A stretch of DNA of 64,000 nt from a virus: IMG/VR virus record IMGVR_UViG_3300045902_000666, positions 1 to 64,000 of that record, one strand, 5' to 3'. The notes under the pieces were generated by a model. It had not been told where the DNA came from. It saw nothing but the letters and a program-made list of their open reading frames with translations, and made no database searches. Positions 228 to 58,091 of this stretch are shown in pieces (the stretch's first letter is position 1; each line of letters opens with the position of its first letter). Position numbers and translations under genes: made by a program.

Positions 228-323
228 TGGGCCCGTGGAGGCTCGAACTCCAAACCTACTGATTATGAGTCAGTTGCTCTAACCACTTGAGCTACAGGCT
301 CTAACCACTTGAGCTACAGGCCC
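228..323 (-). tRNA. tRNA with CAT anticodon (Ile2/Met) containing a 22-bp internal tandem duplication
   Basis: Cloverleaf with CTCATAA loop and GTTCGAG T-loop; 276-297 equals 298-319. Confidence 0.75.
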
Positions 324-376
324 TAACTTCAAAGAACTAATCCGATAACCAACTGAGCTACGGGCTCAAATAGAAG

Positions 377-663: not shown

Positions 664-776
664 TTTCTAAAAATTATACGCAAATATACAAAAAAAGTTC
701 CTAAAACAAAAAAATTTGTCCAGATGGAGGGATTTGAAAAGCGTTTTTTTGTACTATTTATAGTAAAAATGAATTT

Positions 777-1451
777 ATGAAAGCCCTTTTTTCCAAACAA
801 GAGTTCAAACAAGCTAAAGTTAATGATAAACTACCATGTGAATGTTATAATTGCAAAAAAATATTTTATGAAAGTAAAAGGCATATCAACGAATTAAAAG
901 AAAATAAAAGCTATAGAGAAATAAAATACTGTAGTAATCAATGCAGAAGTATTCACAAAAAATTTGTTATTAGTGTTGTATGTAAAAATTGTAACAATGA
1001 ATTTTTTAAAAAGCAAAAAGAAATAAGAAAAACAAAAAACCATTTTTGTTCACGTTCTTGTGCTGCAATTTACAATAATACTCACAAAGCACATGGAACA
1101 CGCAGGTCAAAATTAGAAATATATCTTGAAGAACAACTTACTCTTCTTTATCCGGGTTTGCATATTGATTACAACAAAACTGAAGCAATCAACTCCGAAT
1201 TAGATATATACATTCCATCTTTAAATCTTGCTTTTGAACTTAATGGTATCTTTCATTATGAACCAATATACGGTCAAAAGAAATTAGACCAAACACAAAA
1301 CAACGACCAACGTAAATTCCAAGCATGTATTGAAAAAAATATTTCACTCTGTATTCTTGATGTTTCTGGATTAAATTATTTCAAACCAGACAAAGCAAGT
1401 AAATTTCTCAAAATCATCACAGAAATCATTAACTCAAAGAACTGTTGTTAA
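777..1451 (+). CDS. Zn-finger plus PD-(D/E)xK (Vsr/DUF559-like) homing-type endonuclease
   Basis: CxxC/FCSxxC repeats; ELDIY..LAFELNGIFHY; NDQRK. Confidence 0.8.
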   Translation: MKALFSKQEFKQAKVNDKLPCECYNCKKIFYESKRHINELKENKSYREIKYCSNQCRSIHKKFVISVVCKNCNNEFFKKQKEIRKTKNHFCSRSCAAIYNNTHKAHGTRRSKLEIYLEEQLTLLYPGLHIDYNKTEAINSELDIYIPSLNLAFELNGIFHYEPIYGQKKLDQTQNNDQRKFQACIEKNISLCILDVSGLNYFKPDKASKFLKIITEIINSKNCC

Positions 1452-1517
1452 TCTTTTGGTCACCTTAAGTTTGGTGTTCAGTTGCCACTACGTGAAAGTA
1501 GATTAACATCGGCAACC
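1446..1517 (-). ncRNA. HDV-like (theta-type) self-cleaving ribozyme at the tRNA 3' end
   Basis: P1 GGTTGCC/GGCAACT with G.U first pair, P2 TGTTAATCT/AGATTAACA, P3 ACT/AGT, L3 TTCACGT, P1.1 TC/GA, P4 CACC/GGTG, J4/2 ACCAAA. Confidence 0.8.
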
Positions 1518-1590
1518 TCCAGATGGAGGGATTTGAACCCCCGACCTTGATGATATAAGCATCCTGCTCCAACCATTGAGCTACATCTGG
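1518..1590 (-). tRNA. tRNA-Ile(TAT)
   Basis: CCAGATG/CATCTGG acceptor, GATG-CTTATAT-CATC anticodon arm, A73. Confidence 0.85.
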
Positions 1591-2001
1591 TTATAAATTT
1601 TTTTTTAAATATTCAATTGCATTTTTCATATTTTCAATATTATCATCAAAAAAACCTAAACCTCTATTGCATTTATCACACAATAAACCTCTAACTTTTT
1701 TTGTATCATGATTATGGTCTACACATGCTCTAATTTTTTTAAAACTTTTATTACAAATTCCACATTTATTATTCTGTACAGTAAAAAGTTTTAAATATTC
1801 AGATTCGTTTAATCCATATTTATGTTTTTTTTGATTTATTTTATTTAAATACTTTTCATCTTTTTTATTTTTCAGTCTAAATTCTTTATAACATTTATCA
1901 CTACAGAATTTTGCGCCACCAGCTCTAACTTTTATAGCTAATGCTTCAAAATTTTCAGAACAGTTTTTACAAATTTGTTGTACCTTTTTTCCTCGTCTCA
2001 T
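1591..2001 (-). CDS. endonuclease VII-like HNH endonuclease
   Basis: CGIC..VDHNH..VRGLLCDKCNRGLG motif. Confidence 0.85.
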   Translation of the reverse strand: MRRGKKVQQICKNCSENFEALAIKVRAGGAKFCSDKCYKEFRLKNKKDEKYLNKINQKKHKYGLNESEYLKLFTVQNNKCGICNKSFKKIRACVDHNHDTKKVRGLLCDKCNRGLGFFDDNIENMKNAIEYLKKNL

Positions 2002-2741: not shown

Positions 2742-2823
2742 TCGTCATGGAGGGACTCGAACCCACGTTTTCAACTCACCAACTACAGGTATACATCTTA
2801 TCAGGATGCACTGGTACATGACG
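2742..2823 (-). tRNA. non-canonical tRNA-like RNA, GAT anticodon, no D arm, long variable region
   Basis: Acceptor CGTCATG/CATGACG, CTGATAA loop and T arm intact; only TACCAG where the D arm should be. Confidence 0.65.
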
Positions 2824-2910
2824 TTATATCCTATTAACTCTTCCTTGAGCCTTATTACTTATGGCAGGTTGACAGAACTTCGGATAACCACCTCGTGGTT
2901 GTTCAGTTAG

Positions 2911-4121: not shown

Positions 4122-4193
4122 TGCACCTGACTGGACTCGAACCAGCAACCTTTCGCTTAAGAGGCGATAGCTCCACCATTGAGCTACAAGTGC
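4122..4193 (-). tRNA. tRNA-Lys(CTT)
   Basis: CTCTTAA loop. Confidence 0.9.
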
Positions 4194-4458
4194 ATGACAT
4201 TATCATCAGGGCTTGTGTCTCAATAGTGAACAAACCCCTTATCGTTTCTTCTTACGTTTATATTTCATTTTCATTTTCATATTTTTTCTTTTTCTTTCTT
4301 ATTCTTTTTTTGTTATTGTATACTGCCGAACAGCTTCTACAACAAAATTCATTTCTTTTATCACCGCTGGTGATTTTTTTTTTACACTCTTTACAGTTTT
4401 TCATAATTTCAACCTTATTTTTAATAATAAAAAGGTTGAAATTTCATAAACCATTTAG

Positions 4459-4530
4459 AGCTCTCTCCCAGAATCGAACTGAGTTCTCAGGTTTACAAAA
4501 CCCGTGCATCACCACTTATGCTTAGAGAGC
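4459..4530 (-). tRNA. tRNA-Thr(TGT)
   Basis: TTTGTAA loop. Confidence 0.85.
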
Positions 4531-4544
4531 AATTTTATTATATG

Positions 4545-4629
4545 AGCCTAGTGAGGGATTCGAACCCCCGATGCGGTTACCCATCTTGATTACAAGTCAA
4601 GTGCAATCGACCAACTATGCGAACTAGGC
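4545..4629 (-). tRNA. tRNA-Thr(TGT) with long variable arm
   Basis: CTTGTAA loop; extended variable region. Confidence 0.8.
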
Positions 4630-4652
4630 ATTTATTTTAAAGAACTATTTTG

Positions 4653-4725
4653 AGCCGATAGTGAGAATTGAACTCACGACCTCTTCCTTACCAAGGAAGT
4701 GCAACTGCCACTGTGCTACATCGGC
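4653..4725 (-). tRNA. tRNA-Thr(GGT)
   Basis: TTGGTAA loop. Confidence 0.9.
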
Positions 4726-4730
4726 ATTTG

Positions 4731-4802
4731 AGCCTGGTACCAGAATCTAACTGGTTTCTCATCTTTACGAAAGATGTGCATCACCACTCATGCTTACTAG
4801 GC
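4731..4802 (-). tRNA. tRNA-Thr(CGT)
   Basis: TTCGTAA loop; T-loop variant TTAGATT. Confidence 0.75.
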
Positions 4803-4815
4803 ATCTTTGCCCTTG

Positions 4816-4887
4816 GGTGTTGGTGGGACTCGAACCCTATCATCTGCCTTCACAGGGCAGTGCTCTTCCCGATGAGCTACAAACACC
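4816..4887 (-). tRNA. tRNA-His(GTG)
   Basis: CTGTGAA loop, G-1:C73. Confidence 0.85.
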
Positions 4888-4997
4888 ATATTTGCCTGTT
4901 CCAGTTTCCAGTTATAGGACTTTGGCCAGAGTTTTCTGCTGAGGAGCCAATCTGAATCGACTGACCAGGATGTGTGAACATCCAAACTCATAGGCAT

Positions 4998-5648
4998 TTA
5001 AACCATTTTTCTTCCTTTATTCCATCCTTGCTTAGTAAACAATTCTAATTCTTCTTTTTTTATTTTTTTATTAATTCCATTTTTTGTAATCCAGCAAGTT
5101 CCAAATTGAGAATTTTCACTACCCATACCTGCTCCTTTTTTTGAGTTGCTTATTTTATTTTTAGTTTCGTCATTATGTTTTTTATCAGACCAATCATAAA
5201 AATATTTTTTCTCTCTTTTTCCATCATTGTATGCCTCAATTAATTTTTCTCTAATTTTACTTCCTTTTTTTTCAATCCATCCTGGCTCATTCTCTTTTAA
5301 AAATTTTTGCTTTCTATTAGACTTTTCAGCATTTAATTTTTGTTGTTCTGTAGAAAATCCGCCTGTACCTCCGACTTTAAGGTTCATACAATTTTCTTTT
5401 GCAACTTCATTTAAGTTTACAATTTCCTCTTCTCTTTTTTTAAGCTCTTCTCTTGAGTTTAAAAATTCCAAAATTTCTCTTTTATGGTTTTCAGCACCAT
5501 ACTTATTCAAAGAACGTCTTAATCTTTTACCTGAACCCATATACCCATCTTCTAGGTTATCGGTTGAGTGCATTCCAATATAATACTTACCACTCAGTAA
5601 GTTTGTCGTTTTGTAAATGAAGTGATACTTCTTTTCTTTTCTTGCCAT
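4998..5648 (-). CDS. GIY-YIG homing endonuclease (Seg-like)
   Basis: FIYKTTN..YYIGMH..YMGSG; NUMOD3-like tail. Confidence 0.85.
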   Translation of the reverse strand: MARKEKKYHFIYKTTNLLSGKYYIGMHSTDNLEDGYMGSGKRLRRSLNKYGAENHKREILEFLNSREELKKREEEIVNLNEVAKENCMNLKVGGTGGFSTEQQKLNAEKSNRKQKFLKENEPGWIEKKGSKIREKLIEAYNDGKREKKYFYDWSDKKHNDETKNKISNSKKGAGMGSENSQFGTCWITKNGINKKIKKEELELFTKQGWNKGRKMV

Positions 5649-5698
5649 AATATCTTTTTAAGATAAATATGTAAAAAAGTACAAAAACGACCCTCCAG

Positions 5699-5777
5699 GG
5701 TGTTATACCAGATTCGAACTGGCGTGTTCCTTGTTTCACAGACAAGTTCCGAAGCACCGACACGGATTCATAACACC
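5699..5777 (-). tRNA. tRNA-His(GTG), atypical D arm
   Basis: CTGTGAA loop, G-1:C73, GTTCGAATC. Confidence 0.75.
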
Positions 5778-5781
5778 ATAT

Positions 5782-5930
5782 TTGCAGGGATATTTGAAGA
5801 GAAATTTTTTTAGCGCTCTAACCAACTGAGCTACGGAGTCCATAATTTTTTTTATTGGGACCTCCGATGGGACTCGAACCCACGACCTCTCGTTTAACAG
5901 ACGATGAACTTCTTTATCTTGCCACTGCAA
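5782..5930 (-). ncRNA. Y-RNA (YrlA)-like RNA with permuted tRNA domain (Asn-like)
   Basis: Paired ends TTGCAG/CTGCAA; order is T arm, 3' acceptor, loop, 5' acceptor, D arm; motifs AGTGGCAAG and TATCCCTG. Confidence 0.65.
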
Positions 5931-6049
5931 TTTTTTTCAATATTTCAAACTCAAAGAACAATTTTTTTGCCCATCAGGTTGGATTCGAACCAACTTCTTC
6001 CTTCCGAAAAATATGTAGCTACAACATATTCTTCTAACGAAGAGGTTTG

Positions 6050-17789: not shown

Positions 17790-18595
17790 AGTAATAAGTC
17801 TGAGATTACAACTCATTATAACGGTCTTTGCTAAGATTATCCCTTTTGTGGTTCCTTAGGCTATCCACAATCCTTTCGGATTGTATCCGTCAGTCACGAT
17901 TACTTACGGTAATCAATCTTGTCGTCAAGCTTACTCTACAGCTACTTAACCTACACCTGTACGGCCATACCGATGCATGCCTTTCACGATAATCGTCATC
18001 TCTCTTGCGGAAAGACAACTCCCTAATTCGTATTGCTACGTTAGGGTCTGAGTGACCTTTCAGCTCCAACGCCCATAAGTCTTGGGCGATAATTAATTAA
18101 ATGTAATTGCCTAACATTTTTTTAAAATGTAAGATGTAATGATAATTGCAAAGAGAGACGTGCTTATGGGTGTCAGCTCAATTCCGTTGCCAGAACCAAA
18201 TACTGATACGCCCCTCTGTGAACTTTAGCATGTTCACCCTCAACCCCGATTACTTTTTTACTTGTCTGCTCTTCCGAACCTACAGAGGTCTTTAATAACC
18301 GAAAAAAGGCAAGTGACACAAAGCATTCAGTTTGCTAAACCTCACACTTTATATCTCGGATTTTCTTGTTGACCCATTTCTAAGCCTCAATCACCAGCTA
18401 TCACTACTGATGATGAATCGGAAGCCGTTCTGACGTTCCTATCATACTATCCTAATGTCTAGATGTCCTATTTGGTTTGCACCAACAAGGCGAAAGTTTG
18501 CACCTCCCTTTTATTCCCTATTACTAGAGTTTATCTTCTCTTGCGAGCTTGTCTGAACTTTCGTTCAAACGTGACCCTAAACAGCCACAAATATC
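17790..18595 (-). ncRNA. large structured ncRNA, GOLLD-like
   Basis: ~800 nt, no credible ORF, GC-richer, many GNRA-capped hairpins, own promoter, boxA-like motif and terminator, next to a tRNA. Confidence 0.65.
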
Positions 18596-18693
18596 TTAAC
18601 TCAAAGAACTTTCTAAAATTATGTTGCAAACATAATAACTTGCAAAATAAAAGTCAAGTTTTTTTTAAAAAAAATTGAAAAAAAATTTTTTGC

Positions 18694-18767
18694 CCGCCCC
18701 AGTAGGCCTCGAACCCACGACCCTCGGACCTAGGAGACCGATGCTCTACCAACTGAGCTATGGGGGG
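18694..18767 (-). tRNA. tRNA-like gene with enlarged anticodon loop (Arg-CCT?)
   Basis: Normal D and T arms; loop CTCCTAGG. Confidence 0.6.
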
Positions 18768-18772
18768 AATTG

Positions 18773-57786: not shown

Positions 57787-58020
57787 GTAAATTTGTTTTG
57801 ATGGCTTGATTACTATAATCTAAGCCTGTTTTTTTTGAAGTTTCCATGTTTAATTTTTTTTATGATTAATATTTTATATGCTTTTTTCCATATAAACACC
57901 ATTTATATGGATTTTTTAATATAAGGTCTAGACCTTATAATAACCTTTAAGGTTATAGCCTGATAATAAAACAGGGCTTCTAATTTTTATCTATTTATTT
58001 TTCATAACATTTATTTTTTG

Positions 58021-58091
58021 TGCGAGTAATGGGATTCGAACCCATGAACAAGCTTTTAGAGAGCTTCACTTTACCACTAAATTATACTCGC
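58021..58091 (-). tRNA. amber suppressor tRNA (CTA anticodon)
   Basis: AAGCT-CTCTAAA-AGCTT arm; perfect acceptor and T stems. Confidence 0.85.

Follow-up and report, generated by a model that had tools for sequence, protein, structure and literature searches.

Theta ribozymes, tRNA-associated minimal ribozymes of the hepatitis delta virus (HDV)-like type from Caudoviricetes, entered the literature in 2024 as RNAs that trim tRNAs in recoded gut phages; the paper gives no explanation for their origin or spread and is silent on endonucleases, on homing and on flanking repeats (Kienbeck et al. 2024, PMC10879173). Among published systems, the locus described here comes nearest to T4 SegB, a selfish nuclease gene that lies between phage tRNA genes and is inherited preferentially with the neighbouring tRNA DNA (PMC2330249); a full-text literature search returned no description of a unit made of a ribozyme and a homing-endonuclease gene at phage tRNAs. 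Here we analyse a candidate for such a unit at the 3' end of a tRNA-Ile(UAU) gene in the first 64 kb (64,000 nucleotides (nt), hereafter the window) of the 101.7-kb IMG/VR virus record IMGVR_UViG_3300045902_000666, which has a CheckV completeness of about 37% and probably derives from a large phage. We consider it likely that positions 739-1517 are a mobile cassette consisting of a theta-type HDV-like ribozyme and a convergent Vsr-like zinc-finger homing-endonuclease gene, placed at the tRNA 3' end and bracketed by a 20-bp duplication of tRNA positions 54-73. Comparison with related loci further suggests that theta ribozymes spread joined to homing-endonuclease genes, in cassettes of about 0.75 kb whose insertion sites are tRNA 3' ends. 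The locus is made up of the following parts:

719-738, minus strand: orphan repeat copy (copy B) of tRNA-Ile positions 54-73, a displaced or duplicated tRNA 3' end, 20/20 identical to 1518-1537
739-776, plus strand: left end of the candidate cassette and region upstream of the endonuclease, with a TATTTAT motif (755-761) 22 nt before the ATG
777-1451, plus strand: endonuclease gene, 224 amino acids (aa), antisense to the tRNAs, with two N-terminal CxxC...CxxxC modules and the predicted nuclease domain at residues 108-224 (nt 1098-1448)
1446-1517, minus strand: theta-type HDV-like ribozyme, 72 nt, with the predicted cut between 1518 and 1517
1518-1590, minus strand: tRNA-Ile(UAU), CCA not encoded (ARAGORN; Rfam tRNA 62.6 bits), its last 20 nt (1518-1537) being repeat copy A

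The repeat, which the earlier note on this DNA had described as exact, is 100% identical over its 20 nt and comprises the T-loop, the 3' strand of the T-stem, the 3' acceptor strand and the discriminator. The orphan copy looks like the original end of the tRNA, because the trailer that follows it on the tRNA strand (738 to 719; CAAAUUUUUUUG, starting CAAA) is of the same kind as that behind most tRNAs of the window. On the other side, the first G of the ribozyme (G1, 1517) abuts the discriminator A1518 at a distance of 0 nt, i.e., within the ±5 nt of a tRNA 3' end that is the theta criterion. Ribozyme and endonuclease gene are convergent and overlap at their 3' ends, the TAA stop codon (1449-1451) lying inside the 3' strand of ribozyme P2 (1454-1446), as had also been noticed before. 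The 779-nt insert (739-1517) holds the 224-aa nuclease open reading frame (ORF) only, with no tyrosine or serine recombinase gene. The TATTTAT motif is a putative promoter of the endonuclease; of 53 distinct family loci among the relatives treated below, 32 have TATTTA at -11 to -25.

The ribozyme was parsed in the segmented theta sequence format given in Supplementary Data 2 of PMC10879173. Its first half reads P1 GGTTGCC, J1/2 GA, P2 TGTTAATCT, P3 ACT and L3 T-TC-ACGT, and its second half P3' AGT, P1' GGCAACT, P1.1' GA, an 18-nt L4/P4, J4/2 CCAAA and P2' AGATTAACA. This parse places the elements as follows, all on the minus strand:

1517-1511 with 1486-1480: P1, 7 bp with a G1-U wobble
1508-1500 with 1454-1446: P2, 9 bp
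1499-1497 with 1489-1487: P3, 3 bp
1496-1490: L3, of the form U-YC-NCGY (U-UC-ACGU)
1495-1494 with 1479-1478: P1.1, 2 bp (UC with GA)
1476-1473 with 1464-1461: P4, a 4-bp stem
1459: predicted catalytic C, first base of J4/2

P1, P1.1, P2, P3 and P4 all pair in the window in HDV order, as a nested double pseudoknot. A theta-format descriptor, used in place of two initial loose HDV descriptors that were dropped because they returned mostly noise in AT-rich DNA, has the window ribozyme as its single match on both strands of the 101.7-kb record and none in ten dinucleotide shuffles. Our own re-implementation of the theta RNArobo descriptor matches, with a P3 (ACU/AGU) and an 18-nt L4 that may exceed its authors' limits. 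A covariance model built without the window sequence recovers 1447-1517 on the minus strand with 67.4 bits (E 2e-11), the sole match below E 1 in the 64 kb. The proposal from sequence alone of a theta/HDV-like fold whose first G directly follows the discriminator is thus upheld. An Rfam scan of the window found no HDV-like family, either at the gathering threshold or at E <= 10, which has no bearing on the fold since the Rfam HDV models are narrow; plain minimum-free-energy folding (z -1.6, not significant) is likewise uninformative because it does not model pseudoknots.

Covariation, which extends to all five HDV helices in the relatives, provides a further line of evidence. Among 14 ORF-linked ribozyme relatives, changes on both sides occur at 19 of 26 pairs, 91% of the cells pair as against 25-51% with slid partners, and the P1.1 pair covaries (GC/CG/UA). 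As this set had in part been picked by a pairing descriptor, the count was repeated on 25 distinct ribozymes recovered by a 17-base sequence core only. In these, 98.5% of the cells pair, and compensatory changes are found at 5/7 pairs of P1, 4/7 of P2 and 4/5 of P4, P2 being absent from the structure of the search model. The column of C1459 is invariant in three ribozyme alignments (A2, A4, A5). On these sequence comparisons the window element is a real member of a covarying theta-like HDV ribozyme subfamily, and it would be expected to cleave itself. Within the subfamily, the position after the cleavage site (+1) is A, not G, in 7 of the 25 distinct ribozymes, where it is paired A-U; such variants would be missed by the published theta descriptor, because this requires G.

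The protein encoded on the other strand is recognizable mainly by its predicted fold. Sequence searches of Pfam, NCBIfam and the PDB with the 224-aa protein gave nothing above threshold; partial matches are to PHROG families that carry HNH or homing-endonuclease annotations. None of the 4,571 proteins that make up its family at E <= 0.001 has a name. Aligned, 41 members share two CxxC...CxxxC zinc-ribbon-like modules in the N-terminal half and an invariant block, SELDIYIP...ELNGIxHYEP...ND..K, and the residues invariant in all 41 sequences include E141, D143, E154, H160, E162, D177 and K180. In an AlphaFold model computed from this alignment (mean predicted local distance difference test score, 86), residues 108-224 superpose best on the catalytic domain of I-Bth0305I, a homing endonuclease (3r3p_B; Z 10.5, root-mean-square deviation 2.8, 97 of 98 residues), on the DUF559-type NGO0050 (Z 10.2) and on Vsr (1cw0_A; Z 10.1), with Foldseek probabilities of 0.93-0.99 for the nuclease matches. 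As modelled, the C-terminal half is, at the level of fold, a Vsr-like PD-(D/E)xK nuclease; the antisense PD-(D/E)xK endonuclease of the earlier note is borne out by structure comparison, not by Pfam.

One protein (P0001) is 97% identical to the window endonuclease. A metagenome scan yielded only relatives of about 55% identity, and the phage GenBank collection contains nothing similar beyond two short stretches. In front of most family genes, whether or not these have a ribozyme, lie TATTTA and, at -30 to -50, an orphan T-loop piece (...TTCGAA, then AA). At two ribozyme-less loci, L037 and L066, the orphan tRNA 3' piece upstream of the ORF mismatches the tRNA beside the stop codon (in L037, 11/20). 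Another tRNA may have taken the neighbour's place there, or the cassette may have come along with a tRNA other than the present one.

The design seen in the window recurs at many other tRNAs. We sampled 100 loci (86 distinct proteins) encoding endonuclease relatives at 45-64% identity, nearly all of which lie in phage tRNA arrays with the gene antisense to the tRNAs. At 13 distinct loci, including the window, a ribozyme stands at the tRNA 3' end and overlaps the last codons of the ORF. A second sample, collected from the ribozyme side (24 distinct instances), added four, bringing the total to 17 distinct cassettes of a ribozyme with an antisense endonuclease:

Gene-first sample, besides the window: L002, L035, L036, L038, L039, L049, L057, L074, L079, L084, L090, L091
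Added by the ribozyme-first sample (n=4): L148, L142, L159, L149

The overlap between ORF and ribozyme is usually 13 nt, with the TAG of the ORF opposite the CUA of J4/2, among proteins only about 50% identical. The tRNAs that carry cassettes include Met, Leu, Thr, Pro and Ile tRNAs as well as CUA suppressors. In 15 of the 17, positions 54-73 of the adjacent tRNA are copied 26-65 nt upstream of the ATG; the copy is perfect in six of these 15 and decayed in the rest, and the break always falls at the first base of the T-loop. Decayed ribozymes are present at two further loci. The reading of the locus as a selfish unit, put forward in the earlier note, gains support from this recurrence of a repeat-flanked ribozyme and antisense endonuclease behind many tRNAs. 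The partner of the ribozyme is not always the same: among the 24 ribozyme-first instances, 14-15 have a nuclease gene beside them. The gene is antisense and Vsr-like in eight; in three it is an HNH_3 gene in sense orientation, 9-19 nt downstream; in three more it is a phrog_3322/endonuclease VII-like gene, also in sense orientation; and in one instance a homing endonuclease lies beyond an intervening tRNA. What stays constant in this sample is the ribozyme, and what varies is the nuclease, of at least three families; solo copies occur as well.

Joint gain or loss of the two parts can be followed at one tRNA-Met. The 20-mer of the cassette L057 is found in four contigs, twice in L116 and L117, where it flanks the gene and ribozyme, and once in L114 and L115, where it closes the same tRNA-Met and has a homologous trailer and downstream gene behind it. 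When L116 is compared with L114 by BLAST, two collinear matches emerge (3-1336 with 4168-5535, 71%, and 2079-2506 with 5516-5951, 70%), which overlap on L114 by exactly the 20-nt repeat and leave between them on L116 742 nt, i.e., the ORF and ribozyme. At the orthologous site, L114 and L115 have no ribozyme match and no endonuclease. Ribozyme and gene were therefore gained or lost together in this lineage, with the repeat as the junction, and relatives with an empty site lacking both, which the earlier note had proposed to look for, do exist for this cassette. A scan with the 20-mer of the L036 type found no orthologous empty site, and exact-pattern scans for near relatives of the window junction or ribozyme returned only unrelated tRNA-Pro genes or chance matches.

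As regards the window itself, the public runs containing its DNA come from hot-spring/mat and freshwater settings, with no RNA run among those listed. In contigs of wastewater and lake runs, the cassette and tRNA are about 98% identical to the window over 966-1595, as against only about 89-92% in the flanks, a step in identity that hints at a recent transfer of the cassette. Among the contigs of four public DNA runs, none joins across the cassette; a low-depth joint in X8 (719 to 886, side 21) was too weak to use.

Under the cassette reading, the nuclease would cut cassette-free tRNA alleles, and repair would copy the unit in. The repeat could have arisen in either of two ways: nicks 20 bp apart (near 53/54 and 73/74) may have been filled in, duplicating positions 54-73, or the cassette may have entered the T-loop at 53/54 carrying a replacement 3' end. 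For an occupied allele to be immune, the target would need to include the tRNA before position 54 and the trailer after 73, which the insertion parts. The ribozyme, co-transcribed with the tRNA, would cut exactly after the discriminator, and would replace the trailer as the 3'-end signal, since the native trailer is displaced by about 800 nt. The same cut would detach the tRNA from RNA antisense to the nuclease gene, and CCA would be added once the 2',3'-cyclic phosphate had been removed. The ribozyme may in this way let the invaded tRNA keep a correct 3' end. A more general proposition, to which we give about an even chance, is that theta ribozymes behind phage tRNAs are largely the adapter module of an undescribed class of mobile elements, in which homing-endonuclease genes of unrelated families (Vsr-like, HNH and others) invade the T-loop/3' end and leave a duplicate of positions 54-73 of about 20 bp, while the ribozyme re-creates the tRNA 3' end, solo copies often being remnants that have lost their gene.

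Several observations weigh against these proposals. About 70 of the 86 distinct endonuclease homologues have no ribozyme, many of them lying 0-25 nt from a tRNA, so that the family does not need the ribozyme in order to live in tRNA arrays; on the protein tree its presence or absence needs at least 11 changes, and it is absent from one 37-row clade. At L046 the ORF-linked ribozyme (2171-2237) is decayed, with the catalytic C changed to A and L3 lost, and the adjoining tRNA-Glu is intact, which, together with the ribozyme-less members beside tRNAs, speaks against a rescue of the tRNA 3' end by the ribozyme. At the tRNA-Ile site of the window itself, the search turned up no empty allele, leaving that part of the check proposed earlier without a positive outcome. 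Finally, no nuclease is near the ribozyme in 9 of the 24 ribozyme-first instances. The earlier note had named ribozymes in endonuclease-less relatives as evidence against its reading, and in a loose sense these nine are such a case, but none is orthologous to the window site and one of them (L153) keeps the flanking repeat.

The alternative that survives best, although we regard it as unlikely, is that a resident theta ribozyme processes the tRNA and that endonuclease genes homed beside it later, with the conserved ribozyme/tRNA DNA as their target, making the two neighbours rather than a unit. The solo ribozymes of the same subfamily would fit such a history—besides the nine instances, L046 has a second copy (2886-2955), intact and alone between tRNA-Pro and tRNA-Ser—as would the presence, beside the same ribozyme core, of nucleases from three or more unrelated families (Vsr-like in antisense, HNH_3 and phrog_3322 in sense orientation) and the prevalence of ribozyme-less members in the endonuclease family. 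It does not account for a 54-73 repeat that brackets the ribozyme along with the gene in 15 of the 17 cassettes, for empty sites (L114 and L115) that lack both parts at once, or for an overlap of 13 nt that stays constant across proteins about 50% identical. The solo ribozyme of L153 (120-188) also argues for a unit: 59 nt behind it lies a 16/20 copy of the last 20 nt of the tRNA, as expected after gene loss, and the locus looks like a cassette from which the nuclease gene has been deleted.

Somewhat less probable again is a second alternative, in which the unit is mobile as proposed but the ribozyme serves the element and not the tRNA, cutting tRNA read-through at the cassette border and so restricting, or giving form to, RNA that is antisense to the nuclease mRNA, with its complement perhaps forming a structured 3' end of that mRNA. 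The antisense orientation of the gene in nearly all loci and the overlap of the ribozyme with its last codons would agree with this role, and rescue of the tRNA is not obviously needed, since ribozyme-less members leave their tRNAs intact. On the other hand, in every case the cleavage site lies at the tRNA discriminator to the nucleotide, a precision that matters for a tRNA and not for an antisense RNA, and the same ribozyme also precedes nuclease genes in the sense orientation.

That the repeat was instead left behind when the tRNA array rearranged (by partial tandem duplication) or by an integrase-type island, with the endonuclease unrelated to it, is very improbable: other tRNA fragments do lie nearby (the orphan tRNA-Met 5' pieces at 302-365), and integrase-driven islands do generate a direct repeat of the tRNA 3' end that begins at the T-loop, but no integrase is found in or near the 779-nt insert, the absence of a recombinase being the reason why the island version was rejected, the same break point and spacing recur with the endonuclease family at many tRNAs, and the repeat-flanked design occurs in the present sample only with this nuclease family and never with integrases.

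If the cassette reading is true, selfish nuclease genes would have, beside self-splicing introns and inteins, a third means of rendering their insertion harmless; the more general class proposed above would be the RNA-gene counterpart of the nuclease genes housed in those elements. It would also explain why ribozyme-linked tRNAs are without CCA and native trailers, and would provide a compact system, in which a small protein and a 72-nt RNA meet a defined junction of 20 bp. The fixed break at tRNA 53/54 and the 20-bp repeat hint at an unusual geometry of cleavage or repair.

The cassette is set in a large tRNA array. ARAGORN identifies 38 tRNA genes in the window, all 38 on the minus strand; none encodes CCA (0/38), and 25/38 have C-A-A directly after the discriminator. 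Among them is a CUA-anticodon suppressor tRNA of standard type (58020-58091), and a further tRNA (18692-18768, minus strand) has an 8-nt anticodon loop that ARAGORN reads as the four-base anticodon CCUA. The latter adjoins a full-length GOLLD RNA (17797-18216, minus strand; Rfam 187.9 bits). Amid the tRNA genes lies a gene for a DRB0094-type RNA ligase (PF09414; 2063-2728, minus strand), a type for which a 140-fold enrichment is reported among phages with theta ribozymes (Kienbeck et al. 2024, PMC10879173). Searches of the 101.7-kb record detected no CCA-adding enzyme (PF01743), no PNK3P phosphatase (PF08645) and no 2H phosphoesterase (PF13563), which carries little weight as the record is a fragment (about 37% of the genome).

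Immediately on the other side of tRNA-Ile, an endonuclease VII/HNH gene (PF02945, E 8e-21; 1591-2001, minus strand) ends exactly at the tRNA 5' end. In two of the public runs (X6 and X12), the contigs that are about 98% identical over 966-1595 skip 1596-2077 and have seven other letters instead, which marks this gene as a second mobile insert, present or absent independently of the first. Elsewhere in the array, the 5' end of tRNA-Met (227-301) has an exact 22-nt duplicate upstream of that tRNA (298-319 = 276-297), and a further truncated tRNA 5' half lies nearby at about 323-365 (minus strand); these orphan 5' pieces (302-365, minus strand) are possibly scars of other array rearrangements. 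A tRNA-like sequence at 2742-2830 (minus strand), called by neither ARAGORN nor Rfam, has a 3' end 75% like the 20-nt repeat.

Compared with theta ribozymes as published, the window ribozyme has the same nested double pseudoknot, the L3 form U-YC-NCGY, a 2-bp P1.1 and a J4/2 that opens with C, and it likewise begins with G1 directly after a CCA-less phage tRNA, with an RNA ligase gene (2063-2728) nearby. It differs in its P3 (ACU/AGU, usually RCC/GGY in theta), in a long L4/P4 (18 nt with a 4-bp stem), in its environmental as opposed to gut source and in being physically fused to a nuclease gene with which it would move. The nuclease resembles I-Bth0305I and other Vsr-like (EDxHD/DUF559) PD-(D/E)xK enzymes in the predicted superposition of its C-terminal 117 residues; acidic and His residues are conserved within its own family. 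Unlike these enzymes, it has no detectable sequence match among PDB chains, Pfam or NCBIfam, its predicted N-terminal double zinc-ribbon DNA-binding part is different, and its gene is free-standing instead of intron-borne. T4/T6 SegB shares with it the setting and the selfish inheritance but is a GIY-YIG nuclease, with no ribozyme and no duplicated tRNA 3' end described (PMC2330249).

Beyond phage tRNA arrays, integrase islands at tRNA genes likewise present a direct repeat from the T-loop to the tRNA end, the intact tRNA and the displaced piece lying at opposite ends; the window insert departs from them in having no integrase, in its size of only about 0.78 kb, and in belonging to one element family found at many tRNAs, each with its own matching repeat. 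The HDV-like ribozymes of R2 and other non-LTR (long terminal repeat) retrotransposons (cited in PMC10879173, refs 14-15) offer a parallel, in that an element residing in a host RNA gene shares its transcript and is severed precisely at the junction through a ribozyme of its own. These ribozymes, however, free the element's sense RNA for reverse transcription, whereas the window element has no reverse transcriptase and the RNA it would release is antisense to its gene. There would also be an analogy in logic with the homing endonucleases of self-splicing group I introns and inteins, where a catalytic RNA or protein element also travels with the nuclease gene and makes its insertion harmless to the invaded gene; in the window, by contrast, the RNA would cleave and not rejoin, the insertion lies at the end of an RNA gene and not in coding sequence, and the nuclease is encoded on the other strand.

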